A stretch of DNA of 64,000 bases from an uncultured Flavobacteriales bacterium (lineage in GTDB: Bacteria; Bacteroidota; Bacteroidia; Flavobacteriales_C; GCA-002722245). Numbering within the stretch: position 1 is the stretch's first letter; every line of letters begins with the position of its first letter. Below the pieces are notes generated by a model. That model saw only the letters and a program-made list of their open reading frames with translations, was not told the DNA's origin and did not search any database. Of the stretch, positions 749-58,177 are shown one piece after another. The stretch spans positions 3,638 to 67,637 of the forward strand of contig CAWVWF010000001.1 of the NCBI GenBank assembly GCA_963933885.1. The letters are read 5' to 3'. The translations under genes and the position numbers were made by a program.

Positions 749-813
749 GATCTTGGGATTTATTCTTGAATACTAAAGTAAAGCTTTTCTTCAAAAGTTC
801 GTTTCAAGCTCTT

Positions 814-875
814 CGTACTTCTTGATTTGAGTGAAACGGTAATCTAGAAAGTAAAAGATCCGATTTTCAATCGGT
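814..875. repeat. copy A of a ~60 nt conserved intergenic element
   Basis: cgtacttcttgatttgagtgaaacggtaatctagaaagtaaaagatccgattttcaatcggt. About 83% identical to copy B. It contains a small hairpin ccgatt/aatcgg. Confidence 0.6.
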
Positions 876-994
876 ATTATACATAAAACAAAAAGTACAA
901 TGATAATTAGCCATTTTCTTAAACATCTTGCGATTAGGATTAAAAAGGTTATTTTTGCACTCGGAATATCAAACTATTATAACCTGTTTATTGC

Positions 995-2533: not shown

Positions 2534-2542
2534 TTTTAGATC

Positions 2543-3184
2543 ATGAAAAAATTTGCCTTAATAATATTTACATTATTCTTTAGTCTACAATCTTTCGCAG
2601 GTGCTAAAAACCTACGTTTAATACCAAAAATGGCTGTTGCTTTATACTTAGGTATTGAAAACCAAGTACAGCTGATTGGTGATAAAATAGACTTGAAAGA
2701 TGTTGTCTTAGATTGTAACGACCTGGTTATTTCTGAAGCAAAAGGTAATGCTCAATTTATAGTTTTGTGCAAGGACAAAGAAAGAACAGAAGTAAAAATT
2801 ACAATTAGAAGTAAGGCGGGAAAGAAGCTTGGTAAGCTAAAAGTTATATTCATTCCAATACCCAATCCCCAGGCAACTGTATTAGGCTTAAAGAGTGGTG
2901 AAATCACTAAAAAACAATGTGATAAAGCCAAAAAACTAAAGATTGAAATGGTTGATTTCCCTTTCGATATTAAAGTTGAATTGGTGAGGTTCACAATGAA
3001 AATGTTTGTTGGAGGTGACATTATTGAGTTTCGTAACAAAGGCGAAAAGTTTAATGGTGCAATGACTAAATGGTTAGGTAAAGTTAAGCGTGGTGCAACA
3101 ATAACTTTTGATAACATTGAAGTTGAAATGCCAAACGGCGAGAAAAGAACAATCGCTCCATTAGTATTTAATTTAGTCGAATAG
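2543..3184 (+). CDS. secreted two-domain protein of unknown function, internally duplicated
   Basis: Signal peptide MKKFALIIFTLFFSLQSFA. Two roughly 90 aa Lys-rich halves of similar beta-rich pattern (…KITIRSKAGKKLGKLKVIFIP… and …VELVRFTMKMFVGGDIIEF…TITFDNIEVEMPNGEKRTIAPLVF). It sits 10 bp downstream of the SulP gene on the same strand. Confidence 0.55.
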   Translation: MKKFALIIFTLFFSLQSFAGAKNLRLIPKMAVALYLGIENQVQLIGDKIDLKDVVLDCNDLVISEAKGNAQFIVLCKDKERTEVKITIRSKAGKKLGKLKVIFIPIPNPQATVLGLKSGEITKKQCDKAKKLKIEMVDFPFDIKVELVRFTMKMFVGGDIIEFRNKGEKFNGAMTKWLGKVKRGATITFDNIEVEMPNGEKRTIAPLVFNLVE

Positions 3185-3313
3185 TACCAAGAAATTAACT
3201 CCTCAATTAATCACCTTATCAACCTAAACGGGCACTCTACTTTAAGAATAGGGCAGTCTGTCAATTTCATATTTTAAACAGAGTGAATTTAGATACTTTT
3301 ACCAAAAAAAAGC

Positions 3314-5341
3314 ATGTCTAAGATTCTTACAATTTTCTTTTCAGCAATATCTCTTTTCAGTTTCGCTCAATGTCCTTCTGGAAATGTAGTACTTAACAAC
3401 CAAGCCGAATTAGACGCTTTTGCAATTTCACATGCTGGCTGTACTAGTTTTACTGGAAATCTTGAAATAAAAGACACGCAATTAAAAGATATAACAGACC
3501 TATCGGCATTAACTAATTTAGATACGATTTGGGGGGATTTAATCTTTACTTATCTCCGTCAACCTATCGATTTGAATGCATTATCAAATCTGAAATATGT
3601 TTCGGGTGCTTTATCAATTACAGAATGTGATAGTTTACCTTCTCTTGAAGGATTAAACAATTTAACAGAAATTGGTGGAGAGTTTACAATTTACAGATGT
3701 GATTCTCTTGAAAGCTTAGCTGGTTTAGATAATCTGACGACTATTGGATCAACAAGAATATTTGATTCAAAAAAATTAAGTGTTTTAAGTGGAGTTCCTA
3801 ATCTAACAAGATGTTTAGGTGATTTCAAACTAGAGAATTCAAGAGTCACTGATCTAACAGGACTGGAAGCTCTTGAGACAATTGGAGGAGGATTAACTCT
3901 AAATTACAATTACCTATTAACTAGTTTTAATGGTCTTACCAATTTAGATTCAATACTTGGAAGGTTTTACATTACAAAGAATAACAAATTAACAACTACC
4001 CAAGGTGTTGTTGCTCTGCGATCAATTGGATCGTTAGAGATTTTGAGGAATGATAAATTGGCAATGATCGACTTTCCTACTTTATCATATGTAAAAAGTT
4101 CAATTACAGTAGAAGACAGTGATTCAATAAAAAATTTCCTTCCTGGAATGCCAAGCTTAATAGAACTGAATGGATACTTACAAGTATATAATACACCTAT
4201 AGAAAGCTTTTTAGGACTTGAATCTTTAGTTAAAATTAAAAGCGGACTTTACGCCTTGCTATGTCCTGATTTTACAGGATTTTACGGATTAGAAAACTTA
4301 GATACGATTGAAGGAACGATGTCTTTATCTCAATGTCATATGGTTACTGATTTTGAAGGTATTAGTTCATTGAAAACTGTTAATGATCTTAACATTATTA
4401 ATAATTTAAGACTTAAAAATGTTAACTGTTTCTCTCAACTTACAAGCGCAAAAAATATCACTATTAAAGAATGTGATAGCTTAGTAAGTATTGACTCTTT
4501 ACATAATATTACTTCTGTAACTGATGTACTTACTCTTAAAGACAATCCTTTACTAGCCAGTTTAAATGGTTTAGAAAACTTGGCACTGGCAGAAGCTATT
4601 TCTTTATTCAATTTGCCAAAACTAACATCTGTTTCTCCTCTATCTAAAATTAAAGTGCTTCATGAAGGTTTTCTTGTTTACAATACAGGAATAAAAGACT
4701 TTACTGGAATGTCTCAATTAGACTCAATAAATGAGTTGTTTTATGTTCAGTACTGTGATTCTCTTGAATCATTTAATGGGTTATCGAACTTGAAATTTAT
4801 CGGTTCAGACTTTATCGTAAGTAATGATTCAAACTTAGTTGATATGACTGGATTATCTAGCTTAACAACAATAACTGATTTAATTGAAATTTACGAAAAT
4901 CCTAAACTTGTTTCAATAGAAGGATTAGAAAATCTAGCTATATCCGTTGATGCAGATGTTGAAATATATGATAACGATTTACTTACTTTCTGTGCGATAA
5001 CAAGTGTTTGTGATTACTTAGCACTAAATCCTGGAGGTTCTGATATTTATGATAACGCAACTGGTTGTGATAATGAAACTGAAATACAAAATGAATGTTC
5101 TGTTACCTCTGTAGTTGATATTAAAGCAACGTTTACTGTTTACCCTAACCCATTTAATAATTATCTAACTGTAGAAGGGATGAATGAACATTCAAGTTAT
5201 ACTGTAACAGATATATCTGGTAGGACAATAATCACATCAAATTCTGAAAGCATAAATACGGCGGGATGGAACAAAGGAGTTTACTTCTTTAAAGTGATGG
5301 ATAATAATCAATCCTTTACATACCAACTTGTGAAACGTTAA
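3314..5341 (+). CDS. T9SS-secreted repeat protein (receptor-L-domain/LRR-like repeats) with a type-A Por C-terminal sorting domain
   Basis: Signal peptide. At least 20 irregular repeats of ~22-25 aa with the L-x-x-L-x-x-I-x-G/N-L pattern (…LTNLDTIWGDLIF…, …LNNLTEIGGEFTI…). The last ~75 aa (TFTVYPNPFNNYLTVEG…GVYFFKV…) match the T9SS type-A CTD. Confidence 0.8.
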   Translation: MSKILTIFFSAISLFSFAQCPSGNVVLNNQAELDAFAISHAGCTSFTGNLEIKDTQLKDITDLSALTNLDTIWGDLIFTYLRQPIDLNALSNLKYVSGALSITECDSLPSLEGLNNLTEIGGEFTIYRCDSLESLAGLDNLTTIGSTRIFDSKKLSVLSGVPNLTRCLGDFKLENSRVTDLTGLEALETIGGGLTLNYNYLLTSFNGLTNLDSILGRFYITKNNKLTTTQGVVALRSIGSLEILRNDKLAMIDFPTLSYVKSSITVEDSDSIKNFLPGMPSLIELNGYLQVYNTPIESFLGLESLVKIKSGLYALLCPDFTGFYGLENLDTIEGTMSLSQCHMVTDFEGISSLKTVNDLNIINNLRLKNVNCFSQLTSAKNITIKECDSLVSIDSLHNITSVTDVLTLKDNPLLASLNGLENLALAEAISLFNLPKLTSVSPLSKIKVLHEGFLVYNTGIKDFTGMSQLDSINELFYVQYCDSLESFNGLSNLKFIGSDFIVSNDSNLVDMTGLSSLTTITDLIEIYENPKLVSIEGLENLAISVDADVEIYDNDLLTFCAITSVCDYLALNPGGSDIYDNATGCDNETEIQNECSVTSVVDIKATFTVYPNPFNNYLTVEGMNEHSSYTVTDISGRTIITSNSESINTAGWNKGVYFFKVMDNNQSFTYQLVKR

Positions 5342-5541
5342 ATAAAGGTCTTACAAGTTATTTTTGGTATTCGCACGACACCTTATACTTGATATCTTAA
5401 TATTCCTGTACTTTCGAATGTTTAATTTCTTTTGTTTATTTACATTAACCAACTTTACAAGCCGTATACTACAAAATAAATCCCTGTCTTGGTTATCAAT
5501 AAAGTAGAAGTATAGTAATCCTATTTCTATTTGGCCTTATT

Positions 5542-8067
5542 TTACCTTTTCACTTTAAGCACTTTAAACCATTGGTTATCATTTGAATTTACTGCTTTCA
5601 CAAAATAAACGCCCTCTGATAATGTATTAGGAAATAGAATTGAATACGCATCTGATGCTTGTAAAACCAGTTTTCCGAAGTTATCATAAACCTCAATCTG
5701 ATCGATGGCTCTATTGAAGTTTAACCTATCAAAAACAGGGTTTGGAAATGCAGTGATTTCTGACTTTTTCACAGCCTTTGAAGATGTTAAGACACTAACA
5801 CAAAAATTCTCTGAAGACGTTGATGAATACTCGGCTACTGTTAAAGTTGAGATTACTGAGTTCTGAGATTTGTTTTCTAATTTAAAGTAATCCGTTTGAG
5901 TTGGTTCCGGACAAGCTCCTAAGTCGTTATAATAATGAGGGTAAGCGTTTGGTGGAGCCGACCAGATTTGATTTTTTGCTTCATAAACTTTTCCTTGGAA
6001 AACGAATTTTTCTCCAGTTTCATAAATCGTTGAAGTATTGTATTCTGAAAACATACTACATAAATCCTCTAAAAATGCGTCGTTAATTTCGAAATCATAA
6101 CACACGTTTTCTTCCAAACAGAATTCCTGAGATTGTAAATTATTAGCTGTTGTGCTGCTTACGCTATTGTATGACTTAACTGACGTGTTGTTATCTGAAA
6201 TATCCCATGAAAGACTAGTAGACATTGATCCTGTAGAAATGTCGAATTGAAATAACTGACCAGCTTGCATGTTGAAATTTTGCTCAAATACATTATTTGA
6301 AGGAATCTCATCAATTACACCATTAGGTAAACTTAATACTACTGTGATATCCTGATCACCAAAGTTGGAAATAGGAAAAGTATTTAACGTTAATACTGAA
6401 CTTGTTCCACTTCCAATGGAAACTTGATGATTTTGATTGTAAACCTCAACAGTGTTTAATGAAACAGAAACGTTAACACTCGACAAGATCTTAGAACCTC
6501 CATTCAAAATTTCAATTTCAGGTGCCAATGAATTCCCACACGTTTTAGTGGATATATTATTAATTCCAACAATTGCAGCATCGTTCTCTTTTTGTTGAAT
6601 TCCTTCAATCGTACCCGAAATTTCAAACTGTCCGAGCGAAGAATAATCAGTCCATTTTGTAGCTGCACTTCCTGCTCCAACCCCATCCATACTTAGGTAG
6701 TAATCACCACTAACTAGAACTTTACTAATGTTAACTGCCTGTGTGAAATCAGCATCGTTGTTTGTATACTTTTGAATCAAATTCCCTGAAGCGTCCAATA
6801 ATTCAATCTCAAAATCTAAGTTAGGTTTAGGTAAACCTGTAGCTGCTACATCAAGGTTAATTGAACCTCCAGCAACATAGAAGTGGAATACATCTTTATC
6901 TGTTCTTCTTTCAATAATCCCTTTATTCTTGTTTAATACCGCTACACCTTGTCCGTTTAAACTGTAATCTATTTCGGAAGCAGAGCCAATTGTATTTCCA
7001 TGATCATCTGCTCTATATCCTCCAACTGCATCTTGAATTATCCAAGTATCATCATCGGTAGTGTTTGTTGCATTCGCGTAATCTCCGATACTCCATTGTG
7101 TTAATGGAAGATAATATGAAACACCCATGATAGGTGCCCAAACACCATGTCCTTTATAGTATGCACCATCACCAGAGCTACCATCGTGCGACAACCCTAA
7201 AGTATGTCCAGCTTCGTGAGATCCTGCTTCTGCAGCTCTAACTGAGTTTCCAAATCCATCAGTAAATACCCAGCAAACTTCGGTAGCATTCCAATTAAAA
7301 CTTCCTCTTAAAGCAACTCCTCCTCCTGGAGACCAATAGGATGTTGGTGTAAAAACTACTCTCGTTTTCCATCCGTTTGGTGCGGCATTATAAACCGCTT
7401 CATTAGTTGTTACATTAACATCAAAAGGAGCGTAATCTTCAACTAAAACATACCAAGCAGTTAACATATCAATATCACTCCATCCAGTTCCAGCAGCGTT
7501 TAATGAAGCCCCACTATTCCATGGCGTTCCGGATGGAAGATTGTATCCATCCATATCACAGTAAATTACCGCTGTAGCTCCTGGATTACTATTTAAATCA
7601 TATGGATCCCAAGCGTATTCTTTTAGTGAATCTAATTGCGCTGTTGTAAGGGCTGATTCTTCATCATCTAACGCTCCTTGATGTCCTTTAAACCCTCTAC
7701 AGATCAATTTATCAACGTTGATGACTTTGGATATAACTTCTCCTGATTTTGATGTTTTTAATGAATAAGCTTCATGCTCAGAAACAATTACAAAACCTTC
7801 TAGTTCTTGGTCTCTGTTGTATCCTAAAACAAATAAGGAAGCTTTACCTTTTAACTTTCCTAATACTTGCTGTTCTCCTCTTTTATATAAATCGATTTCG
7901 ATTTTCTTCGTTGTAGATACTTGAAGTTTCGTTGTACTGGATCTACCATGTAAACTCGTAAACAATGTTTCAGCATCGCCTAGCGAAAATGAACTGGTAT
8001 CTTGTGATCTTCCTACAAAATTCGCGAAAATAATCCCTCCTAATAAAAGTACTTTAAGTCTTAGCAT
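5542..8067 (-). CDS. zinc metalloprotease (metzincin, reprolysin-like HExxHxxGxxHD) with pre-peptidase beta-sandwich domains and a T9SS type-A CTD
   Basis: HEAGHTLGLSHDG is the zinc-binding motif. The C-terminus AFPNPVFDRLNF…GVYFVKAV…KVLKVKR is a Por sorting domain. The track ORF extends to 8157 via a TTG start. I moved the start to the ATG at 8065-8067 because the signal peptide MLRLKVLLLGGIIFANFVG follows it. Confidence 0.8.
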   Translation of the reverse strand: MLRLKVLLLGGIIFANFVGRSQDTSSFSLGDAETLFTSLHGRSSTTKLQVSTTKKIEIDLYKRGEQQVLGKLKGKASLFVLGYNRDQELEGFVIVSEHEAYSLKTSKSGEVISKVINVDKLICRGFKGHQGALDDEESALTTAQLDSLKEYAWDPYDLNSNPGATAVIYCDMDGYNLPSGTPWNSGASLNAAGTGWSDIDMLTAWYVLVEDYAPFDVNVTTNEAVYNAAPNGWKTRVVFTPTSYWSPGGGVALRGSFNWNATEVCWVFTDGFGNSVRAAEAGSHEAGHTLGLSHDGSSGDGAYYKGHGVWAPIMGVSYYLPLTQWSIGDYANATNTTDDDTWIIQDAVGGYRADDHGNTIGSASEIDYSLNGQGVAVLNKNKGIIERRTDKDVFHFYVAGGSINLDVAATGLPKPNLDFEIELLDASGNLIQKYTNNDADFTQAVNISKVLVSGDYYLSMDGVGAGSAATKWTDYSSLGQFEISGTIEGIQQKENDAAIVGINNISTKTCGNSLAPEIEILNGGSKILSSVNVSVSLNTVEVYNQNHQVSIGSGTSSVLTLNTFPISNFGDQDITVVLSLPNGVIDEIPSNNVFEQNFNMQAGQLFQFDISTGSMSTSLSWDISDNNTSVKSYNSVSSTTANNLQSQEFCLEENVCYDFEINDAFLEDLCSMFSEYNTSTIYETGEKFVFQGKVYEAKNQIWSAPPNAYPHYYNDLGACPEPTQTDYFKLENKSQNSVISTLTVAEYSSTSSENFCVSVLTSSKAVKKSEITAFPNPVFDRLNFNRAIDQIEVYDNFGKLVLQASDAYSILFPNTLSEGVYFVKAVNSNDNQWFKVLKVKR

Positions 8068-8296
8068 AGTTCTGTTTTTTAAGAATCGTTTTACTTTGGT
8101 AAGTAAAAGTGAAGTTTCCAAAATCATCAAATAGAAAAACATATCGATCCACACCAAATTTATTGATAGTGAAGATGTTAAACAGAACGAAAAATATTAA
8201 AAATGATATTTCAAGGAAGGGTGATTTATAGATTGAGTTCGTGTATTGTTGCGATATAAAACAGTATATTTTTAAGAGGAAAATCATCCTTAAGGC

Positions 8297-8324
8297 TGTT
8301 CTGAAAACAGGTGTTTTCAGAACA
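8297..8324. promoter_or_regulatory. 28 bp perfect palindrome (13+2+13), a candidate operator or structured RNA hairpin
   Basis: TGTTCTGAAAACA GG TGTTTTCAGAACA. The arms are exact reverse complements. It lies in a 490 bp gene-free gap upstream of the metalloprotease gene. Confidence 0.4.
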
Positions 8325-8373
8325 ACTTTACCACGCCTATATATAATAAATGCAGGTACTTAGAGCATGTTTC

Positions 8374-8400
8374 ACTTTGGTGACAGTCACCAAAGTTTTT
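8374..8400 (+). terminator. intrinsic terminator-like hairpin (11 bp stem, 1-nt centre, T5 tail) with no upstream + strand CDS
   Basis: actttggtgac a gtcaccaaagt followed by ttttt. Confidence 0.4.
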
Positions 8401-8451
8401 ATGGGGTTAATTGAAGCTCTCTCCAAAACTAATTATAGATCCACCGTATAC

Positions 8452-8511
8452 CGTACTTTTTGATTTAGCGAAGCGTAATCTAAAAGGTAAAAGTTCCGAT
8501 TTGTAATCGGT
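8452..8511. repeat. copy B of the ~60 nt conserved intergenic element
   Basis: cgtactttttgatttagcgaagcgtaatctaaaaggtaaaagttccgatttgtaatcggt. Same orientation as copy A, 7.6 kb away. Confidence 0.6.
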
Positions 8512-8647
8512 GTTTAATCAGTTTAAATTTATTTAATTAGAAATATCAGAAGATAGGGATTGCTTAAAACTAGAGCTTCGAGCTAATATGATTATTTATT
8601 TGTCGTATTACTTACTAGGGGCCTGACCCTATAGCACTCTATAGCAC

Positions 8648-9079
8648 TCATGGATTTTGAGCTCTGTACAAAGTAAAAGTTATCGTTTTTGTTACAGTTT
8701 GATTATTTGAATTCGTGTATACTGAAGATCCCTCAAAAACAAACTTGTCTGCAGAAATTGATACAATTTTATATTCATCAAAAAATTCAGTTAATCCTAT
8801 AATATTAACGGTATTAGCTGTGCAAGACCAAGTACAGTTTAATCCTGGGGAAAAACAAACTTTAGCATAAAGATCTTTTGCTGTTTCAAAATCAAATTGT
8901 GTTATAGAAGTCGTTTTTGAAGATGACCCGTTTCCAGTCTCTTCGAAATCTCTTTTCGTTCCTGATTCCCAAACGCCAACTATTTGGTCACTTACTAATT
9001 CAGCTTCATTAACTTCTTCTTCCTTCTTACAGGAAAATAATGCGAGTGTAATTAAACAAAATGCGAATAAATTTTTCAT
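8648..9079 (-). CDS. small lipoprotein, function unknown
   Basis: MKNLFAFCLITLALFSC has a lipobox (LFSC). It is ~143 aa mature. The start was trimmed from 9106 to the ATG at 9077-9079 in front of the signal peptide. Confidence 0.55.
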   Translation of the reverse strand: MKNLFAFCLITLALFSCKKEEEVNEAELVSDQIVGVWESGTKRDFEETGNGSSSKTTSITQFDFETAKDLYAKVCFSPGLNCTWSCTANTVNIIGLTEFFDEYKIVSISADKFVFEGSSVYTNSNNQTVTKTITFTLYRAQNP

Positions 9080-9334
9080 AATTTTTAGGTTGCGGTTTAA
9101 AGACATAATTCAGCATCTAAAAAAAGATACATGAAATATTATACTTTATAATACAAAACGCTTCGAAGCACCCTTAACAACTAACTGGCATATGTCTAAA
9201 AAAATAATATGTGATAGTGTAATTTGTATTTGAAATACAATTAAGTAATTCCATTACTTACTCCAGTATAATTTCGAGAAGGTGATTTCTCCCGATTCCT
9301 TATTATTAAACTTAATAGAAATTGGTTTTGTATT

Positions 9335-9355
9335 GCTCATCATAATATGATGAGC
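9335..9355. promoter_or_regulatory. 21 bp perfect palindrome, a candidate operator
   Basis: GCTCATCATA A TATGATGAGC, about 225 bp upstream of the lipoprotein gene 8648..9079 (-). Confidence 0.3.
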
Positions 9356-9460
9356 ATTCAGATTGAGTCTATGTAAATCTTATAGCACAACGAATTTAAT
9401 AGTTATGACTGAATTGATGCCTTTTAAAAAGTAGTTATTGACGCTTGTAGTTATTGGAAT

Positions 9461-9496
9461 AAAAAAAGGCTGTAATCCTAAGATTACAGCCTTTTG
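9461..9496 (-). terminator. bidirectional rho-independent terminator, strongest for the minus-strand BNR gene
   Basis: aaaaaaa ggctgtaatc ctaa gattacagcc ttttg. On the minus strand the stem is followed by T7. It lies 19 bp after the stop of 9515..12850. Confidence 0.55.
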
Positions 9497-9514
9497 AAAT
9501 TATTTTATTGATAC

Positions 9515-16919: not shown

Positions 16920-19900
16920 CTACCTCAATACATTAACGTGACCCACCTTTTGTTTTCGTCTTGGTTTTCCATCTGGATGATTCATTGAGTAGTATATTTT
17001 ATATACATATGTATCTATCTGAACTTCTCTTCCCATGTACGTTCCATCCCAATCTACAAACATAGATTCAGACTCATAGATTTGTTGTCCCCATCTGTTA
17101 AAAATATACATGTGATAATCCGTTATGTTATGTCCTTTAGCATTAAACGAATCGTTAATTCCATCACCATTCGGGCTGAAAGTATTTGGTATATATAACG
17201 CGCTTGGACAAAATTCATTAAATGTAATACGATCAGTAATAAAACAATTTCCAACACTAATTTGAACTACATAAGTTCCTGCTGATTGAATCGTAATATC
17301 AGATGTTGAATCAGTTGTTCCCCACAAATAATCATAACTCTGATCTGTACCAGCACTAATATTAAAACCTCTATCTGTAAGCTCTTCAAAACAGAAGTAC
17401 TTATTATCTAACGAATGATCTATACCACTTGTAGGCAATGGAACTACATTAACATTAATGGTATCTGTTGAAGAACATAGCTCGTTGCTTACACTTATAA
17501 TATGCGTATTTGTTTGGTTTACATCAAATACTGTTTCAGTTTGACTATCATTCCATGTATAATTTAAGCCTGAAATTCCAGCATCGATAGTTCCTGTTTC
17601 ACCCTCACAAAGATTGATATCTGGTCCTAAATCCACAACTGGAATTGGAACAAAAATTACGTTAACAGTATCTTTTCCGACACAACCTTCTGGTGTTTCA
17701 ACATTGAGAATATAATCGTTAGATCCAGTCGCAGTTATTTGTGAAACCGTATCTGTAGTTGACCATAAGTACGATAGGTTTTGATCTCCCCCTATATCAC
17801 TTACATTAACTAATGTTCCATCACAAACTTTGATATCGGGACCCAAATCAGGATTAGGATTATCGTTTAAAATCACCTCAACAAAAGTTGAGTTTTTACA
17901 ACCTGTAGCAACATTTGTTACTTCCTGATCGAAGATACCTCCAGTAAATACTGTTATTTGAGCAGTTTGCTCAGCGGTACTCCAAACATAATCGAATTGG
18001 TTTCCTTTATCATTTCCTATGACAACAGAATCTCCATTACAAATCGCAGCCTTTGAAGGAGTTACTATTGGTAAAGGATGAACTTCTACTTCTACAATAG
18101 CATCTCCTTCACAACCTTTTCCATCGTCAACATGAACAATATACAATCCACTTGTATCAACGTTAATTACATCTGTTGTTTCATTTGTAGACCATGTGAA
18201 ATTGTAATTATCCACACTTTTATAATTTGGAATTAAATCTACATTCTCACCAATACACAAATCTATTTTCGGTGCGTTGGCAATTGTAACACTCAAGTTT
18301 TGTTCAATCGTAATTTCTGCAGAATCTCTTCCTACACATCCATAAGCATCTGTAATATCCACCCAAGTCCATTCTTTATATGCAGCAATATATGTACTGT
18401 ACTTACTCCTATCATGCCATTCATAAGTATATGGCCCATTTCCATTGTCGAATCCTGAAGCATCTAGCGTTGCCTTCATCCCTGGACACATTGCAACATC
18501 GAATATCACATCAGGTTTTGGAAGTGGAATTACAATTAATTCAACTGTATCTTGAGCAACACAACCATTTGAATCAGTTACTTCAACATCATAAATCCCA
18601 GGTCTTGTTGTATTATATGAATCCTTATCTGAATAATTAAACCATTCATATTTCGCATAAGTTCCTGGTGTAAAAGCTACGCTAGAAGCATTCTCACAAA
18701 TTGTTATATCCAGGCCTAAATCCGGAGTTGGTAGAGGGTTTACAACAAGTACAACAGTATCGCTTCCGGGACACCCCTGAGCATCGATAAAATCAACTGT
18801 GTATTCTCCTGCTTGATTTGTTTGAAAACTACTGATGGTATCTCCAGTATTCCAAATGTATGTTTCGAAACCTAATCCAGCATCAAAAATAACTTCTGAA
18901 TCACCTGCACATATTACTTGATCCTGCATGTTAACTAAAGGCATCTGATTTACTTTTAAGTACATTGTATCGTATCCTAAACAACCATTTGAATCTGTTA
19001 AAATCAGACTATAGTCGCCTTCATCATGGATTTGTATAGATGAAGTAGTAGAATCGTTACTCCATAAATAAGTTGCTTTTGTAAATCCGGTAGTCAATTG
19101 AACTGCTGGGTCCATTGAACAAATTTCTTCATCTGGTCCTATACTTACAATTGGATTAGGATTTACCACAAGTTCCACTGTTGTATCATTTACACAACCA
19201 TTAGAATCGGTTACTTCAATATGGTAAGAATTACCTGCGTTTGTAGATAAAAGCTGATCTACACTTAAACCATTTTGCCAGTTGTAAGAAAGGTAAACAC
19301 CAGCATCCAAAGTTACAGGACTATCGCCATCGCAAATTGTATCGTTTGGAACGTAAGGGATAGGTAGTAAATTTACAATCAACTCAAACGATGTATCGGC
19401 TTTACAACCATTACTATCCGTTACTTCGACTGTATAAACACCACCATCCTTACTGCTGAAAACCGAATCATTATTATTACCATTCCAATCGTAAATATCA
19501 TAATCTCCAACACTAAATTCTACTATTGAATCGCCTTCACAAATCGTATCGTTAGCAACATATGGAATTGGCAATACATTTACTATTAGTTCGAAACTTG
19601 TATCTGATATACATCCATTATCATCCATTACTTCAACGGTATAGACTCCAGAAGCATCTAATTGGATAGTTTGCGTTGTATCATTCGTGCTCCATAAGAA
19701 AGAAGTATAACTCCCAGCGTCGAAAACCACAGGTCCTCCTCCTTCACATATTGTATCATTTGATATAAAAGGAATCGGCTTTGGATTAACTACTAACTCA
19801 AAACTCGTATCCGATACACAACCGTTACTATCTGTTACTTCGATTGTATAGCGTCCTGCTGAATCAAGGTTAATAGTTTGTGTTGAATCTTGCGTACTCC

Positions 19901-22760
19901 AATTAAATAAATCATAATTTCCTGCATCAAAAGTCACAGCTAAATCGCCTTCACATATTGTATCATTTTCAACAAAAGGAATTGGATTTGGTCTGTTTAC
20001 TAAAATGAAAGAAGTATCATTCACACACCCATTACTATCTGTTACTTCGATGGAGTAATTACCAGCAGAGCTCGTACTGAACGTACTAGAATTTGATCCT
20101 CCGTTGTTCCAATTATAAACATCATAATTACCAGGATCGAATGTTACACTGCTATCACCATCACAAATTGCTTTACTATCTATAAATGGCTGAGGCAATG
20201 GGTTTACTACTAACTCAACTATTGTATCTCCTTCACAACCATTATCATCTATAACTTCAACTGAATAGATTCCGGCTGAATTTACAGTGATTGTTTGATC
20301 TGGTGAATTGTTAAAACTCCATGTATAAGATGCAAATATTCCAGCATCAAAAATTATTGATGGGTCTCCTTCGCAAATCGTATCGTTTGGTATAAAAGGA
20401 AGTGGTAATGTATCTACAAATAAAACAACAGAATCAGTATCCTTACAACCATACTGATCCGTTATTTCTACAATATATTCACCTGCCGAATCTTTAGTTA
20501 TTTGCTGATTTGTTTCTGATGTATTCCAAACATATAAATCCCATGTTCCTGCATCAAAAGTAACAGGAGCGTCGCCTTTACAAATCGTTTTATCCACTCC
20601 TAAGTCAACTACTGGTTTTGGGTTTACAATCAATGTTACAACTGTATCCTCAACACAACCATTGCTATCCGTTACTTCTACTTTATAATCACCTGCGATA
20701 GTTGTTTTTATTGAAGAACCTGTTCCGTTTTGATAATCCCAACTGTATGCATCGTATATTCCAACATCAAATGTTATTGCTGAATCGCCTTCACAAATCG
20801 TATCATTTTCGATATAAGGAACTGGGAGTTCATTTACTTTTAATAACACGGTATCACTTCCTTTACAACCTTTGATGTCTGTTACTTCTACGAGGTACTC
20901 TCCCTCAATATCAGTTGATATCGTTCGAGTTATTTCATTGTTATAATTCCATAAATAGGTATCCCAATTCCCTGCATCAAAAACTATAGAAGGATCATTT
21001 TTACATATAGATGTATCATTTCCTAAATCTGGTTTTGGTAATGGATTTACAACGATATAAATTGAATCTTTACAAGTACTACCTATCCCCGTTACAGTAT
21101 AAATCAACTTGTACTCTCCTTCTTTTGTAGATAGGTTAAGTGCATTAAAACTCGTGTCAGATTGTTCAACTAAAACAGCATCTACTCCACTCGTTGTTGG
21201 AATTGAATCAATAGACCAAACTCCTGGTCCATTCCCTAATAGTACTATTGGATCCAATGCTATCGAATCCACTCCAATACAAAGTTCAGGTTGAACATCA
21301 TCAAGTTCAACCTCACAGCTAACACACTCTTTTACTTCTATCCAAATCGTATCGTTTACATCACAAAACCTAAATTCTATCATATGAAGTCCTGCACCTG
21401 CATCACTTGGAACAAATAACCCTTTGATTTGCCCTGAGTCTCCTGCCTGTATTCCATTTCCAAAATAACCATGTGTTGCATCCGCTTGTCTGATTCCCGA
21501 TTCCGAATCTACATGACTACAAACCCATTCTGTATATAAATCAATTGGCGTTGTAATCGTATCACAAAAAGGTCCTACCTCTGTTATATCAGGTTCTTCT
21601 GCTGGTGGAATAAACATACTTGAAATTCCATTCGAGGATTTTATATTCATATCCGTTGTTCCTCCAGAAGCAGAATTAATTCGATACATTCCACTTGCTC
21701 CGGCACTATAAACATATCCATCTGCTCCTAATTCTAATCCTAAATGACTTCCATTAGGCATTGAAAAACTTTGTCGAGATCCTAAGATATCACTAGCGCT
21801 TGTATTAAAAGTTGAGACACCTTTAAGTATTTCCGAAATATATAAAGTTTGATTGTCTGCTCCAAATACTAAATCATATGGTATAAATCCAGTTGTAGGT
21901 GCGAAACTTTCACCATCTGTGATTTCCCCTGTTTTGTTATTAAAATTGTAAATCCTTAGGGTATTAGCCGCAACCCCTGTAGGCCATGCTTGGGGGAATG
22001 CTGATGCCATTTTAGTTCCATCCCAATTAAATGCTATTCCACCTCTCTCCCATTGTCCGGTAACACTAAAAGCTTCATTAGAAATTACAGCTGGTGTAAC
22101 AAATCCATCACAAGTTAAAAGAAAAGTGTGGAATTCGGTTGAACCAACCTTTAAGACTGTTACCCAAATATCAACTCCATTTTCATGGAAAGTAGCGGAA
22201 ATACCTTCTGCAACTTTGAAGGTTGTAAGTTGTTTTGAATATATGTGTTGTGCGTTTTCATCAAAAACACCAATGTTAAATCCATTGGCTCCACCAAGTG
22301 CATCATCAGTTGTTAGCGCATAATATTTAAATGGAGCTAATGGGTGTCTTACCATCATCACCCCTTGAGAAGCACTCCCGTATGAAGTAGCCCCTCCTTC
22401 ATTTCCTTCTTTTAATCCAGCATAGGTTTTTGTTCCTGTATTATCATAAACAGATAAACCATTTGTCATCAATATTAAGTTTCCTCCATCATCACTTGCT
22501 GAAGAAATTCCTTCATAACCTCCAATTACATTTGTTGTACTATTACCATAAGAGGTAGCAGTTTGTGTTGTGAAATTGTATACAAACGATTTACCTCCAA
22601 TACTAGGTGCGAGGAAAAAGTTATTATGCCCTGGCCATTCCCAAGGGTTTCTTGTAGTAGTAACACATGTTTGACGCTCTTGAGCGATTACTTCTGAAAA
22701 TGAAAGTAGAATTATAAATAATACTCGAAAATGAGTGCTTATACCCTTGATGAATCTCAT
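16920..22760 (-). CDS. giant surface adhesin-like T9SS cargo with an N-terminal ~450 aa beta-rich domain, ~16 tandem Cys-containing ~78 aa repeats, and a type-B (gliding-motility-associated) C-terminal domain
   Basis: 1946 aa. Signal peptide. The repeated unit is P-x-P-x-x-x-N-D-T-I-C-E-G-D-x-x-x-x-F-D-A-G-x-Y-x-x-Y-x-W…Y-x-V-E-V-T-D-x-N-G-C. The C-terminus FSPNGDGINDSF…IFNRWGQQIYE…WDGTY matches the CHU_C/type-B CTD. Confidence 0.85.
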   Translation of the reverse strand: MRFIKGISTHFRVLFIILLSFSEVIAQERQTCVTTTRNPWEWPGHNNFFLAPSIGGKSFVYNFTTQTATSYGNSTTNVIGGYEGISSASDDGGNLILMTNGLSVYDNTGTKTYAGLKEGNEGGATSYGSASQGVMMVRHPLAPFKYYALTTDDALGGANGFNIGVFDENAQHIYSKQLTTFKVAEGISATFHENGVDIWVTVLKVGSTEFHTFLLTCDGFVTPAVISNEAFSVTGQWERGGIAFNWDGTKMASAFPQAWPTGVAANTLRIYNFNNKTGEITDGESFAPTTGFIPYDLVFGADNQTLYISEILKGVSTFNTSASDILGSRQSFSMPNGSHLGLELGADGYVYSAGASGMYRINSASGGTTDMNIKSSNGISSMFIPPAEEPDITEVGPFCDTITTPIDLYTEWVCSHVDSESGIRQADATHGYFGNGIQAGDSGQIKGLFVPSDAGAGLHMIEFRFCDVNDTIWIEVKECVSCEVELDDVQPELCIGVDSIALDPIVLLGNGPGVWSIDSIPTTSGVDAVLVEQSDTSFNALNLSTKEGEYKLIYTVTGIGSTCKDSIYIVVNPLPKPDLGNDTSICKNDPSIVFDAGNWDTYLWNYNNEITRTISTDIEGEYLVEVTDIKGCKGSDTVLLKVNELPVPYIENDTICEGDSAITFDVGIYDAYSWDYQNGTGSSIKTTIAGDYKVEVTDSNGCVEDTVVTLIVNPKPVVDLGVDKTICKGDAPVTFDAGTWDLYVWNTSETNQQITKDSAGEYIVEITDQYGCKDTDSVVLFVDTLPLPFIPNDTICEGDPSIIFDAGIFASYTWSFNNSPDQTITVNSAGIYSVEVIDDNGCEGDTIVELVVNPLPQPFIDSKAICDGDSSVTFDPGNYDVYNWNNGGSNSSTFSTSSAGNYSIEVTDSNGCVNDTSFILVNRPNPIPFVENDTICEGDLAVTFDAGNYDLFNWSTQDSTQTINLDSAGRYTIEVTDSNGCVSDTSFELVVNPKPIPFISNDTICEGGGPVVFDAGSYTSFLWSTNDTTQTIQLDASGVYTVEVMDDNGCISDTSFELIVNVLPIPYVANDTICEGDSIVEFSVGDYDIYDWNGNNNDSVFSSKDGGVYTVEVTDSNGCKADTSFELIVNLLPIPYVPNDTICDGDSPVTLDAGVYLSYNWQNGLSVDQLLSTNAGNSYHIEVTDSNGCVNDTTVELVVNPNPIVSIGPDEEICSMDPAVQLTTGFTKATYLWSNDSTTSSIQIHDEGDYSLILTDSNGCLGYDTMYLKVNQMPLVNMQDQVICAGDSEVIFDAGLGFETYIWNTGDTISSFQTNQAGEYTVDFIDAQGCPGSDTVVLVVNPLPTPDLGLDITICENASSVAFTPGTYAKYEWFNYSDKDSYNTTRPGIYDVEVTDSNGCVAQDTVELIVIPLPKPDVIFDVAMCPGMKATLDASGFDNGNGPYTYEWHDRSKYSTYIAAYKEWTWVDITDAYGCVGRDSAEITIEQNLSVTIANAPKIDLCIGENVDLIPNYKSVDNYNFTWSTNETTDVINVDTSGLYIVHVDDGKGCEGDAIVEVEVHPLPIVTPSKAAICNGDSVVIGNDKGNQFDYVWSTAEQTAQITVFTGGIFDQEVTNVATGCKNSTFVEVILNDNPNPDLGPDIKVCDGTLVNVSDIGGDQNLSYLWSTTDTVSQITATGSNDYILNVETPEGCVGKDTVNVIFVPIPVVDLGPDINLCEGETGTIDAGISGLNYTWNDSQTETVFDVNQTNTHIISVSNELCSSTDTINVNVVPLPTSGIDHSLDNKYFCFEELTDRGFNISAGTDQSYDYLWGTTDSTSDITIQSAGTYVVQISVGNCFITDRITFNEFCPSALYIPNTFSPNGDGINDSFNAKGHNITDYHMYIFNRWGQQIYESESMFVDWDGTYMGREVQIDTYVYKIYYSMNHPDGKPRRKQKVGHVNVLR

Positions 22761-23208
22761 AACCTATTTTTTGAATGAAAAAGGATTTAGACTTTCTAAA
22801 TCCTATAACCAATCGTGAAGCAAGATTTTGATACTGTTCCCGATTACTAATGTAACAGTTAAGAGAAAGCTAAACATCCGTATTATCCCTAGAATCATTT
22901 ACAAAACAAGCAGTTACCAAATTAATCAAGGTTTTTGCATAAAATGTATACTTTGAAAACAAGTAGTTTTCGAGCGTAAATAGGGCTTTGACGCGTTTAG
23001 GTGAAATTTCCATTTTTTTATTTTTAATGTGTAACTAAACTGTTATTTCAACAAATAGCAATACACCTTCTTTACTATCCAATAGCTTGACATTTCATGT
23101 AAAACAATAGTCATTTGTGTAAAGGATTTTGAACAAGAAAAAGTCTTTCATATGTTTATTAGGAGCCGATTTCATCACACTATTCACGTATTTAAAACCA
23201 AACTACTT

Positions 23209-30483: not shown

Positions 30484-30509
30484 AAAAAAAGGGGGCATAA
30501 AGCCCCCTT
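30484..30509 (-). terminator. bidirectional terminator between the convergent giant adhesin and expansin-like genes
   Basis: aaaaaaa gggggc ataaa gccccc ttc. A GC-rich 6 bp stem in an AT-rich context. An A-run sits on one side and a T-containing tail on the other. Confidence 0.5.
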
Positions 30510-30529
30510 CTAATATTATAAAGTATTGA

Positions 30530-32245
30530 TTACTTCTTTACAAAAGTAACAGCACCTGTAGTAGTAGCGTTTGTAAATTTAGCAACATAAATTCCTGAAG
30601 CTAAGTTAGAAACATCAAAAGTAATTTGAGCACTAGCTCCAGATAAGTTTTTACTTCCAACAACTTGACCGTTAATATTAACGATTTGGATAGTGTTTAC
30701 ATCCTTAAGTCCAGAAAAAGTAATATTTGTATTAGCTGGGTTAGGATATGTAGTAACGAAATCTAAAGAGTTAATTAAATCTCCTGTAGAAGTAATTGTA
30801 CATCCAGGGAAATTAGCACCTCCATCGATTTTAGCATCTCCATTGTTATCCATGTCATTTACAGTAAGAACAACTTCGTTACCATAGATATCAGTGATTT
30901 TGAATGTTTTGTCGTCTCCTCCGAAACTACCTTTAACCCATCCATTATCAACTCCTAATGCCATAGCTTCATAAGAAGATCCACCGTCATTAGAAATTTC
31001 TACTGAAGCAATTCTGTTTGTATGGTTACCAATTACAACTTTAGCATACCAAGCATGAGAACCTTGAGTAATTACATGTAAATTGTTTTGCCAAGGACAA
31101 GTAACTTCTTGCCAGTCAAAATCACCAATTCCAGCAGCAACGTGATCAATATCAACAACAGCTTGGAAAGCAGCGATACTTAAATCGATATCTCCAAACT
31201 TTGTGTTTGTTCCAACGATAATTGAACCATCACCAGCTCTATCCCAACAATCAGGACATTCATCAACGATTTGAATAATTGCAGTTCCTTCTAATCCTGT
31301 TGCTTCAACACACATACCACAGTAAGGTGTTCCACCATTTTGAATTAATAAACCTTTATCCAATGCACCATATTTAGTACCTAAGATATCATCTCTTTCG
31401 AAAGAACATTTAACAACACCATTTGGTTGAACATCTAAGTTATTATACCAAGTACCATGACCATGATCATCAACAGAACCAGTACAAGCAGTTCCAGTAC
31501 CACCCCCGTTACCACATGGTGAACATGATGCTCCACCACAATCAATTCCAGTCTCATCTTGGTTTTGTATTCCATCAGAACACGTTGCACCACCAGTACC
31601 AGCACCAGTAGATTCAGCTCCAATTTCAACTCTCTTTATACCGAAAGTTACTCCATCCGATGCTGATCTCCAACCAAATGCTCTAATGTCATTCTTCCCA
31701 GTAAAATCAATCCATTCTTGCTCATTTCCTGCAACAGCAGCAAGATCAATAACGAATCTTTCATCTGCATTTGCAGTTGTAAATGTTAATGTTGGAATTA
31801 CTCCACCAATATGTGTAGAACTACCTAATCCCCACGCTGTACCTCCTGCACCTACAAAAAATTCAAGCTTTGCTCCAATTTCGCTTGATCTTGCAATAAT
31901 TGTAACTTCTGTATGATTAGTAAGGTCTATTCTATCAGCATCAAATGCAGTAGTACAACCTGATCCATTTATGTAAGGAATAGGATACCATGCAGCTCCA
32001 GCCCATTGAGGAATACTAGCTACAGAAGTCATTGTACAATAACCATCTCCAAGTAAGTGATCTCCTGCTTCGAATGAAGTTCCGTTATCCATGATAGCAT
32101 GAGTTCCTGGGAAACCATAAGATAAATAACAATTTGAAAGTGGATCTGTGTTATCGTAGATCAAACCTGTACCAGCACTATTTAACTGCGCACTTGCAGT
32201 TAATGTAGCTGTTCCAAGTATAAAAATTAGTAATTTTTTAATCAT
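30530..32245 (-). CDS. expansin-like protein (EXLX: DPBB D1 + CBM63-like D2) with an N-terminal extra domain, a Gly/Thr/Cys-rich linker and a T9SS type-A CTD
   Basis: The D1 motifs ALDKG…NGG…CGMCVE…IIQIVDECPDC…GDIDLSIAAFQAV parallel plant expansin and GH45 motifs (GACGYG…CGACFE…HFDLSQPAF). The D2 motifs GSHAWYAKVVIGNHT…NGWV…KTFKITDIYGNEVV parallel Bacillus EXLX1 D2. The C-terminus TYPNPANTNITF…GIYVAKF sorting domain is present. Confidence 0.7.
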   Translation of the reverse strand: MIKKLLIFILGTATLTASAQLNSAGTGLIYDNTDPLSNCYLSYGFPGTHAIMDNGTSFEAGDHLLGDGYCTMTSVASIPQWAGAAWYPIPYINGSGCTTAFDADRIDLTNHTEVTIIARSSEIGAKLEFFVGAGGTAWGLGSSTHIGGVIPTLTFTTANADERFVIDLAAVAGNEQEWIDFTGKNDIRAFGWRSASDGVTFGIKRVEIGAESTGAGTGGATCSDGIQNQDETGIDCGGASCSPCGNGGGTGTACTGSVDDHGHGTWYNNLDVQPNGVVKCSFERDDILGTKYGALDKGLLIQNGGTPYCGMCVEATGLEGTAIIQIVDECPDCWDRAGDGSIIVGTNTKFGDIDLSIAAFQAVVDIDHVAAGIGDFDWQEVTCPWQNNLHVITQGSHAWYAKVVIGNHTNRIASVEISNDGGSSYEAMALGVDNGWVKGSFGGDDKTFKITDIYGNEVVLTVNDMDNNGDAKIDGGANFPGCTITSTGDLINSLDFVTTYPNPANTNITFSGLKDVNTIQIVNINGQVVGSKNLSGASAQITFDVSNLASGIYVAKFTNATTTGAVTFVKK

Positions 32246-32543
32246 TTTTTAGAGTTTAATTATTAAGTGTTACTAATTTAAATAACATCGTCGTTTAAAG
32301 CTTTTAAATTAATTTCAATAAACTTATTTAAAAGCTTAACAACAAACCCTAACACATTCATATATAAATAGATATGAAAACAAAACCAGTCAACCTTGAT
32401 TTTATTAAAAAAATATGATTATCCCGATATAATCAACGTATACATCTATGAAATACATTAACATATCTACGAAATCGAAATCGGATAATAACAAGAAAAA
32501 TATAAACTGTATTTACAACAGTATTTTGAAAGGTGACTTTTTA

Positions 32544-32747
32544 TTAATGAAGCACTTTTTTCACTCTACCAACAATGCCATCATCAAGCATAACTTTAAT
32601 ACCATGTGTATGCTTAGTGTTCTTTGTAAGAATTCTTTTTACTACACCAGTTGTAAGCTCACCACTTCGTTGGTGAGGTTTTTGAACAACTTCTACCTTA
32701 CTGCCAAGTTTAATGTTTATGAGGAAAGAACCGTCTGACTTATCCAT
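32544..32747 (-). CDS. YwbE-family small conserved protein
   Basis: 67 aa. …VQKPHQRSGELTTGVVKRILTKNTKHTHGIKVMLDDGIVGRVKKVL closely parallels B. subtilis YwbE. It overlaps the argD stop by 1 nt. Confidence 0.7.
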   Translation of the reverse strand: MDKSDGSFLINIKLGSKVEVVQKPHQRSGELTTGVVKRILTKNTKHTHGIKVMLDDGIVGRVKKVLH

Positions 32748-33874
32748 TATTTCAATTCTTCTTTTATAGCTTCAACTAAAAGATCACACTCCTTTTTACC
32801 AATAGTCATTGGCGGTAACAATCTCAAAATATTTGGGTTACCACATCCACCAGTAAAAATCTTATGTTTACTTAATAATGAAGAACGTAATGCTTTTCCA
32901 TCACCGTTAACCACTAATCCAAGCATTAAACCTCTTCCTGTAATCTTAGAAATTTTATTAACCTTAGAAAGGTTTTCTATTAGATAATCACCCCACTTCT
33001 TAGCGTTGGATAATAATGATTCGTTTTCTATAATTTCAAGAACAGCCAATGAAGCAGCACATGCTAAATGATTCCCTCCGTATGTTGTCCCTAATAAACC
33101 AAAACTAGCTTTAAAGGCTGGAGATAAAACAACTCCTCCAATTGGAAAACCGTTACCCATTCCTTTAGCCATAGTAATAATATCTGCTTTTATCTCAGCA
33201 TGCTGATGGGCAAAGAAATCACCAGTTCTACCGAAACCACTCTGTACTTCATCTAATATTAAAACAGCTTCGTACTTATTTGCTAAAACTCTTAAACCTT
33301 GTAAAAAATCATTTGTTGGTTCAATTATCCCAGCAATTCCTTGAATTCCTTCAATGATAATTCCTGCAACATCTCCTTCTGCTAAAGCGTCAGAAACTGC
33401 ATCTAAATCATTTAAAGGTAAATATGTAGTATTGATATCTCCATTAAATTCTGATTTCATTTTTGGTCCATCAGTAACTTTTAATGCACCACCTGTTCTT
33501 CCATGAAATCCTTTTTCGAAAGCTAAAACTCTTGAGTTTCCTGTATGGAAACTTGCCATCTTTAAAGCATTCTCAACTGCTTCTGCTCCACTGTTACATA
33601 GGAACAAATTATAGTCGTTATATCCTGAAATCTCTCCTAATTTATTTGCTAGATCTACTTGAGTATTATTGATGACAGAATTTGAATAAAATCCAATTTT
33701 ACTCAATTGATCAGTAATCTTAGAAACGTAATGTGGATGAGAATGCCCTACCGAAATAACAGCATGTCCTCCATAAAAATCAAGATATTCTGTTCCTTCT
33801 TTATCGTAAACATATGACCCACTCGCCTTAACTGGTTCGATAGGGAATAATGGATATACTTCAAATAAATTCAT
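32747..33874 (-). CDS. argD: acetylornithine (or succinylornithine) aminotransferase, class III PLP aminotransferase
   Basis: Class III aminotransferase signature LILDEVQSGFGRTGDFFAHQH…ITMAKGMGNG with the PLP lysine. The arg-cluster context supports the call. Confidence 0.85.
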   Translation of the reverse strand: MNLFEVYPLFPIEPVKASGSYVYDKEGTEYLDFYGGHAVISVGHSHPHYVSKITDQLSKIGFYSNSVINNTQVDLANKLGEISGYNDYNLFLCNSGAEAVENALKMASFHTGNSRVLAFEKGFHGRTGGALKVTDGPKMKSEFNGDINTTYLPLNDLDAVSDALAEGDVAGIIIEGIQGIAGIIEPTNDFLQGLRVLANKYEAVLILDEVQSGFGRTGDFFAHQHAEIKADIITMAKGMGNGFPIGGVVLSPAFKASFGLLGTTYGGNHLACAASLAVLEIIENESLLSNAKKWGDYLIENLSKVNKISKITGRGLMLGLVVNGDGKALRSSLLSKHKIFTGGCGNPNILRLLPPMTIGKKECDLLVEAIKEELK

Positions 33875-37710: not shown

Positions 37711-37775
37711 TTAGCTAAAATAAAAAAAGCTGTCCCAAATTATGGAACAGCTTTATTATCCGTTAATATTTTATA

Positions 37776-43049: not shown

Positions 43050-43107
43050 GCATAAAAAAACCCAAACGTAGAAGTTTGGGTTTTTAGTATTTTTAGTTCG
43101 TTTGTGA

Positions 43108-50224: not shown

Positions 50225-50388
50225 TAGGTTACCAACCCTAACATAGCAGTTCAAAAGTTAAGTGAGTACAATTATCAAATCACTTCAAATGAAGCTTTTT
50301 CAACAAGAGTGTTTAACACTTTAGGAAACGTGATTTTCTTGAAACAATTCAGAAGTATGTCAAAACTGTTGAGAAGATAATTAACAAT

Positions 50389-50420
50389 ACACGTATCACA
50401 ATTAAATAAGTGATACGTGT
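50389..50420. terminator. hairpin between the convergent CBM9-like and response-regulator genes (possible bidirectional terminator)
   Basis: acacgtatcac aattaaataa gtgatacgtgt. A perfect 11 bp stem with a 10 nt loop. There is no strong T-run. Confidence 0.3.
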
Positions 50421-50428
50421 AATATTTC

Positions 50429-54391: not shown

Positions 54392-54417
54392 AAAGGTTTC
54401 ACAAATGTGAAACCTTT
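54392..54417 (+). terminator. terminator-like hairpin after the HAMP-GAF gene
   Basis: aaggtttcaca aa tgtgaaacctt followed by tacaaaa. 11 bp stem. Confidence 0.3.
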
Positions 54418-58152: not shown

Positions 58153-58177
58153 ATTTTACAAAGGTTTTAAAATACAA

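Follow-up and report, generated by a model that had tools for sequence, protein, structure and literature searches.

The question raised by this locus is whether the long gene-free spacer upstream of a secreted zinc metalloprotease gene, in an uncultured Flavobacteriales bacterium, acts as a regulatory hub or harbours a small RNA (sRNA) gene, as had been proposed in a first-pass annotation. The spacer belongs to a 64,000-nucleotide stretch (hereafter the window; assembly GCA_963933885.1, contig CAWVWF010000001.1, positions 3,638 to 67,637) and contains a perfect palindrome, a hairpin followed by a run of T, a copy of a repeat also found elsewhere (copy B), and a short tandem duplication. The idea of a hub was not supported: no relation links the four features, copy B being one member of a dispersed repeat. 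From the sequence comparisons reported here, the best explanation is that the gap is a lineage-specific patchwork spacer, located within a variable islet of genes for proteins secreted by the type IX secretion system (T9SS), and not a conserved regulatory module. With slightly less than even confidence, we read it as three unrelated pieces set in lineage-specific DNA, namely the promoter and 5′ untranslated region (UTR) of the protease gene, two unique hairpins, and one copy of a mobile-type repeat. The spacer appears mostly ordinary, and nothing in it beyond one orphan terminator suggests a regulatory RNA.

Extent, content and conservation of the spacer

The spacer occupies positions 8068–8647, between the start codon of the protease gene (ATG at 8067, minus strand) and the stop codon of a predicted lipoprotein gene (8648, minus strand), according to the list of open reading frames (ORFs) and to a start set by BLASTP. 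The stretch had been described as a gene-free gap of 490 bp (8158–8647); it is indeed gene-free, but its extent is 580 nt, because the protease starts at the ATG at 8067. In the BLASTP comparison with the 46%-identical homolog P0005, the alignment begins 24 residues past the Met encoded there, which fits a signal peptide and thus this start.

The claim that the gap holds no ORF stood for those longer than 40 aa, but not for shorter ones: four ORFs of 31–40 aa lie wholly inside it on the plus strand, and one of 77 aa on the minus strand overlaps the protease start. The 40-aa ORF (8241–8363, plus strand) stops 10 nt short of the T-tailed hairpin and gave 0 matches among 1.84 billion representative proteins; as it has no homolog, it was dropped as a candidate for a hidden small gene. 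The tandem duplication (tatagcactc, two perfect copies) is present too, but it lies at 8630–8649 and not at 8626–8645, so that it overlaps the lipoprotein stop codon by 2 nt. Around it (8600–8650, minus strand), the sequence ctatagggtcaggcccctagtaa, just past the lipoprotein stop, resembles the C-terminal coding sequence of the homolog in a relative, L002 (ctatatagggctcaggacccagtataa), and this sequence, with the adjoining 10-mer, gives the impression of a gene 3′ end that has been remodelled or duplicated.

In the window, nine perfect inverted repeats have arms of 10 nt or more, where dinucleotide shuffles gave 1.7; none of the nine falls within a gene, and this gap accounts for two. The hairpins of the gap are therefore not a chance product. 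The composition is low in GC (around 33% in the window), and no anomaly of composition was found for the islet. The search for tRNA and tmRNA genes found none, and Rfam gave no match at the gathering threshold over the whole window, nor at E ≤ 10 over 7800–9300, where only noise was returned.

No homolog of the gap was found in the genome, metagenome, viral, phage and plasmid collections searched, other than identical assemblies from the same population. A Tara Oceans scaffold (L012, L016) matches the window at every base, and an ENA assembly (L011) departs from it by 1 base in 11.5 kb; among these three assemblies, there is at most one base of difference over 11–16 kb, and the gap itself is identical, so no covariation could be obtained from population variation. 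The blastn comparison with phage and plasmid records was empty, whereas an exact-pattern scan for the palindrome recovered the identical Tara scaffold alone among metagenome contigs and nothing among viral contigs. Following the synteny of the lipoprotein, protease and SulP transporter genes into relative loci revealed no relative with the gap. Conservation among close relatives had been put forward in the first-pass annotation as a check on its proposal. Taken at face value, the region is not conserved; yet it is absent from the nearest relatives found because the whole islet is missing or differently filled there, which makes this check uninformative rather than negative.

The islet (2534–9514) spans around 7 kb between the stop codons of the SulP gene and of a Sortilin/T9SS gene, and includes a GldM_4th-like gene, a leucine-rich repeat (LRR) gene with a T9SS sorting domain, the T9SS protease, the spacer, and the lipoprotein gene. 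The SulP transporter shows 84–90% identity to proteins of Flavobacteriaceae and of “MAG: Flavobacteriales bacterium”, which, with the low GC, the many T9SS proteins and the Tara Oceans match, points to an uncultured marine flavobacterium. In the relative L018 (SulP 91% identical in amino acids), the distance from the SulP stop to the stop of the Sortilin-like gene is reduced to 170 nt (L018 9460–9628). In L002 (SulP 95% identical in amino acids and 87.6% in nucleotides; lipoprotein 64% in amino acids), the islet (1368–2153) contains only the lipoprotein gene and a decayed GldM_4th-like gene, with the lipoprotein stop 35 nt from the latter and an IS1595 transposase nearby; neither the gap nor the LRR and protease genes occur there. 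The closest homologs of the protease (at most 46% identity) are encoded 4–26 nt behind another protease gene, without a long upstream gap. As judged from these loci, the interval that separates the SulP stop from that of the Sortilin-like gene is a hypervariable islet of T9SS cargo genes.

The two-hairpin repeat of copy B

The repeat copy that had been noticed in the gap at 8452–8511 was confirmed, as the local alignment of 8452–8514 with positions 814–878 scored 71, versus a mean of 23 and a maximum of 35 in shuffles. Copy B extends over 8446–8520 (plus strand; covariance-model matches of 98 and 94 bits) and consists of hairpin 1, TACTTTTTGATT...AATCTAAAAGGTA with a GCGAAGC apex, and hairpin 2, CCGATT-TGT-AATCGG. 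Copy A (808–884, plus strand) is located in the divergent spacer between a 137-aa gene and the SulP transporter gene; in both L018 and L002, homology 5′ of SulP begins at window position 911, which leaves copy A outside the conserved SulP promoter block by 34 nt; copy B is inside the islet. A covariance model built from A and B found three further copies, which belong to this genome and lie just beyond the window: copy C (L011 14937–15003, plus strand), starting a few bases past the stop of a 174-aa gene; copy D (L011 15054–15132, minus strand), arranged tail-to-tail with C at around 50 nt; and copy E (L017 19537–19603, plus strand), followed by a decayed inverted partner (region 19537–19690). 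This amounts to five copies in around 78 kb of this genome, with scores of 47–104 bits, all of them intergenic and without a set orientation towards genes; a fixed orientation relative to downstream genes was considered and rejected, as most copies are in divergent spacers, where either orientation would fit.

The repeat unit measures around 65–75 nt. Its hairpin 1 follows TACTTyyTGATT...AATCTrrAArrTA, in which a GCGAAGC-type apex is optional (C and E have a deletion of it), and its hairpin 2 follows CCGATT-NNN-AATCGG. In the alignment of the five copies, 97.8% of the stem cells are paired, and three stem pairs have changed on both sides: U-A became C-G at two places along hairpin 1, and C-G became U-A in the apex. 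No pair with changes on both sides was obtained in slid controls, in which the 3′ partners were moved by 1–3 columns. These compensatory changes among five related copies are suggestive, rather than conclusive, of hairpin 1 being kept by selection for pairing. Copies C and E share a longer unit of around 140 nt that includes GAAACGAACArATGATTCCC, and C, its spacer and D form a composite of around 200 nt with the copies as inverted termini, with no direct repeat or target-site duplication visible at its flanks. Copies A and B are single, without an inverted partner.

Outside this genome, a decayed copy was observed in the relative L022 (GCA_001757065.1) at 807–857, 7 nt after a CN_hydrolase gene, with 74% identity to C and its stems unpaired, which indicates that the repeat family predates this species. 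The first 30 nt of the L002 contig showed 93% identity to the right flank of the E locus, in what looks like an assembly break at the repeat. Beyond this decayed copy and this flank match, around 116 kb of relatives contained no copy. A scan of species-representative genomes (a collection without the window's own genome) with the repeat core GTAAAAGNNCCGATTNNNAATCGG produced 8 matches, all attributable to chance and without extended similarity. No RAYT (IS200/IS605-type Y1) Pfam family was present among the listed genes of the approximately 78 kb read. By its distribution and structure, the repeat behaves like a new small family of the repetitive extragenic palindrome (REP)/REPIN type or of the miniature inverted-repeat transposable element (MITE) type, and copy B is the only part of the gap with evolutionary support.

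Hairpins, promoters and possible transcripts

The T-tailed hairpin was confirmed on the plus strand at 8374–8396, followed by TTTT at 8397–8400 and then A. Its perfect 11-nt arms fold as a stem of 10 bp with 4 G-C pairs and a 3-nt loop (dG −11.8 kcal/mol), an arrangement that has the anatomy of an intrinsic terminator. As originally pointed out, no plus-strand gene is found upstream of it. A terminator scan of 7900–9300 detected 2 sites versus 0.5 expected, and the whole window was scanned for hairpins with a T run. Among the intergenic hits whose stem reached 9 bp or more, six loci lie 20–140 nt downstream of a gene on the same strand (9464–9495, 30487–30511, 37726–37754, 43056–43085, 54392–54417, and 58176–58207), and just two are orphans, the hairpin at 8374 and another at 22782–22804 (minus strand). 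The genome therefore uses hairpins with a T run as terminators. The hairpin at 8374 most likely stops some plus-strand transcript, since it is of the same type as those at six gene 3′ ends and faces away from both of its flanking genes.

The second orphan (AGGATTTAGAAAGTCTAAATCCT, then TTTTC) shares its strand with a 1946-aa CHU_C-type adhesin gene (16920–22760) and ends 22 nt ahead of its ATG. It may be an attenuator in the leader of this gene, or mark where a small transcript from further upstream stops.

The palindrome was confirmed at 8297–8324 as a perfect 13+2+13 dyad of 28 nt (TGTTCTGAAAACA-GG-TGTTTTCAGAACA), which can fold, as had been suggested, into a 12-bp stem with a 4-nt loop in the RNA of either strand (dG −14.5 kcal/mol), without a T tail on either of them. 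A motif search returned this single occurrence in the 64 kb. A different perfect palindrome (12+10+12), also without a T tail, was observed at 50388–50421 between the convergent genes 49463–50224 and 50429–51124.

For the promoters, we used the consensus TAnnTTTG of the Bacteroidota sigma-A −7 box (PMC9723704). A perfect box (TAAATTTG, 8155–8162, minus strand) lies 87 nt upstream of the protease ATG and is the likely protease promoter. A second perfect match (TAGTTTTG, 8424–8431, minus strand) may mark another promoter further upstream, in which case both hairpins would fall in a protease leader of around 350 nt. Perfect boxes are expected by chance at 0.65 per kb per strand, that is, around 0.38 per strand in the gap. 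Since just 5 of 19 genes have a perfect box upstream and boxes with one mismatch occur 10.7 times per kb per strand, promoter prediction has no power here and is uninformative. The best candidate on the plus strand is TATATTTT at 8265–8272, with a TTG upstream at a spacing of 13–16 nt versus the usual 19–21 or so.

Put together, the reading that we prefer would work as follows. The first piece would be the protease promoter and 5′ UTR, at around 8068–8200 and including the minus-strand −7 box at 8155–8162. As the second piece, the hairpin at 8374–8400 would be a working intrinsic terminator of the plus strand, halting transcripts that depart from the divergent side of the region upstream of the protease gene, before they could run antisense into the convergent lipoprotein gene. 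A by-product of this would be a short non-coding plus-strand RNA of around 100–240 nt, with the palindrome as its 5′-proximal stem-loop. In favour of this piece, the free energy of the hairpin is near the range of the gene terminators, the RNA 8280–8410 folds with z = −3.96, and the absence of any protein match for the 40-aa ORF speaks for a non-coding RNA. The third piece, copy B, would be one copy of a dispersed, two-hairpin mobile intergenic element of the REP/MITE type, of around 65–75 nt. A short plus-strand transcript ending near 8400 is plausible but unproven; transcription across 8374–8400 is something that we infer, and it is as unproven as any function of the RNA itself.

Several points weigh against this proposal. 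The free energy of the hairpin at 8374 is weaker than that of every gene-associated terminator (−13.3 to −19.6 kcal/mol), its U tail is short (5 U, counting the last base of the stem), and it has no A-run/U-run extension like that of the gene terminators. No plus-strand promoter could be called in the gap, as the boxes of that strand all carry one mismatch, and the perfect boxes are two on the minus strand and none on the plus strand, which favours minus-strand transcription through the hairpins. Transcription of the plus strand is an assumption. Regarding the repeat, shared descent among five related copies can inflate the count of compensatory changes, its copy number is known from around 78 kb only, and its mobility and any transposase are presumptive. 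Finally, the palindrome receives no role in the model beyond that of a stable stem.

Among the alternatives, one that we consider unlikely, yet worth weighing, is a trans-acting sRNA gene of around 100–125 nt on the plus strand (approximately 8280–8400), in which the palindrome would be the first stem-loop, the single-stranded linker of around 50 nt the seed, and the T-tailed hairpin the terminator. Such an RNA may have been acquired with the protease cassette and may control the protease, by analogy with Rfp18, an sRNA that controls secreted metalloproteases in Flavobacterium psychrophilum (PMC9723704). Its terminator is correctly built and orphan, the RNA 8280–8410 folds strongly (z = −3.96), a near-consensus −7 box with a TTG upstream is available (TATATTTT, above), and the precedent in the family exists; however, the spacing of that TTG is too short and boxes of this quality are frequent by chance. 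Furthermore, the RNA has no Rfam match and no homolog in any collection searched, its segment is missing from the nearest relatives, and the best duplex between the linker and the 44 translation-start regions of the window genes (−21.0 kcal/mol) is no better than those of shuffled linkers (mean −22.7). The Rfp18 precedent keeps the idea reasonable, and we do not take it as evidence for this locus. The orphan terminator is the single point in favour, all else being neutral or negative.

The hairpins could also be functionless relics, such as the terminator and 3′ debris of a plus-strand gene or mobile element lost during the turnover of the islet, a possibility that we hold about as doubtful as the sRNA gene. 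The islet is highly dynamic, as illustrated by the decayed GldM-like gene and the IS1595 transposase of L002, the right edge of the gap holds the tandem 10-mer and what resembles a relic, a second copy of the lipoprotein gene 3′ end, and no conservation was found anywhere. Nevertheless, neither hairpin shows a mismatch (13/13 and 11/11), although mismatches build up in relics as they decay, and no trace of a pseudogene was detected, considering the 40-aa ORF without homologs and the empty blastn comparison with phages and plasmids.

Rather less probable is a long, structured 5′ leader of the protease mRNA, of around 350 nt, transcribed from the minus-strand promoter at 8424–8431, with both hairpins acting as elements of RNA stability or processing and the T-tailed one being no terminator on that strand. 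This would make sense of the two perfect minus-strand boxes in the gap, above the number expected per strand and with none on the plus strand, and copy B, which on the minus strand reads as hairpin 2 and then AACTTTTACCTTTT, could provide the end of the lipoprotein transcript immediately upstream of this promoter. Yet the box at 8424–8431 is not preceded by a −33 TTG, the perfect T tail of the plus strand would have to be a coincidence, and no protease homolog shares the leader.

The palindrome had alternatively been proposed as an operator for the protease gene, and we regard as improbable that it binds a dimeric transcription factor, perhaps together with GTTCTG half-sites at 8179–8188 (the −33 region) and 8069–8078 (by the start codon). 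A perfect dyad with 13-nt arms is in fact present upstream of the gene, 230 nt from its ATG, and the lipoprotein gene shows a comparable perfect palindrome (9334–9356, 11+1+11, no T tail) at the nearly equal distance of 228 nt from its own ATG. The motif GTTCTGWWWW occurs four times within 8069–8323, beside the protease ATG, in the putative −33 region and in both arms of the palindrome, out of 11 occurrences in the whole window versus 5.0 expected. However, this motif was picked after the fact, and two of its sites derive from a 9-mer inverted repeat (8069–8077/8180–8188) of which around 0.9 are expected by chance in the region, as estimated from base composition. Perfect 13-nt arms around a 2-nt centre also exceed typical operator half-sites and are more like a nucleic-acid hairpin, the centre of the palindrome is located around 150 nt upstream of the best −7 box, no further copy of it exists in the 64 kb, no regulator gene is nearby, and the homologs of the protease lack such a region.

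As improbable as the operator seems a broader proposal, combining two claims, by which 8280–8400 would be a strain-specific sRNA in the variable T9SS-cargo islet, beside the protease cassette, tuning the expression of the secreted protease, and the repeat would be a new REPIN-like mobile element of marine Flavobacteriales that marks or mediates the turnover of cassettes in islets of this kind, given where copies A and B lie. An attenuator (pairing of 8318–8329 with 8392–8403) was rejected, as there is no plus-strand gene downstream.

Neighbouring genes, significance and known systems

The protease gene (5542–8067, minus strand) is predicted to encode an 841-aa secreted zinc metalloprotease with an HExxH motif and a T9SS C-terminal sorting domain, on the basis of Pfam Por_Secre_tail, a weak Reprolysin_5 match, and its homologs. 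From the ATG at 8067, its N-terminus reads as a signal peptide (MLRLKVLLLGG...), and the alignment with homologs agrees with 841 aa; the public gene call (866 aa, start at 8142) and the longest ORF (871 aa, TTG at 8157) both overshoot this start. The neighbouring gene (8648–9106, minus strand) encodes a predicted lipoprotein of 152 aa with no Pfam family, for which a single non-identical homolog was found (64% identity). Many other proteins of the window also carry the T9SS sorting domain. The 1946-aa gene mentioned above contains tandem repeats of around 207–210 nt (approximately 70 aa) in 6–11 copies with 60–80% identity (17648–20903), typical of Ig-like adhesins. In addition, the 501-nt “gap” between the genes 30530–32245 and 32747–33874 contains, as read by eye, an apparent minus-strand ORF of around 70 aa (approximately 32530–32746) that was missed by our own gene list, which used a cut-off of 120 aa; a weak plus-strand hairpin (32658–32677) lies inside it.

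The main value of these results is negative, in that the supposed hub is best read as a point where unrelated pieces meet in DNA that is not conserved. If the plus-strand RNA were real, it would join a short list of sRNA candidates from uncultured marine Flavobacteriales, with a tie to a secreted protease, a class of enzymes relevant to the breakdown of marine particulate protein. The repeat family is a modest addition to the poorly described REP/MITE-like repertoire of Bacteroidota, with practical relevance, because repeats of this kind interrupt the assembly of metagenomes and are located at the borders of variable gene islets.

Compared by description, the candidate RNA shares with Rfp18 a flavobacterial host, a strong predicted structure, and a link to secreted metalloprotease genes (PMC9723704); however, Rfp18 is genus-wide, experimentally detected, and predicted to pair with protease mRNAs, whereas the candidate here shows no signal of conservation or pairing. 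With respect to intrinsic terminators, the hairpin at 8374 resembles those at six gene 3′ ends of the window in its perfect, G+C-containing stem, 3-nt loop and U run, and departs from them in its weaker stem, its shorter U tract, and the lack of a known upstream transcription unit.

Concerning the repeat, it differs from MITEs in that no target-site duplication is visible at C/D, A and B are single, and no parent insertion sequence is known. It is similar to them (Neisseria Correia elements, ERIC/IRU, and pneumococcal RUP/BOX) in being of comparable size, AT-rich, non-coding and dispersed, in the C/D composite with inverted termini, and in the break of the L002 contig at the repeat. Classic REPs, described in enterobacteria and Pseudomonas, are single palindromes of 20–40 nt, whereas the unit described here consists of two different hairpins over 65–75 nt (around 140 nt in its long form) in a marine Flavobacteriales genome. 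REPs number tens to hundreds of copies per genome, and the five copies known here come from around 78 kb. On the other hand, like REPs and REPINs, it is short, strictly intergenic (5/5 copies), hairpin-forming and without a fixed orientation, it has kept its stem pairing among copies through compensatory changes, and it includes in C/D a tail-to-tail inverted doublet.

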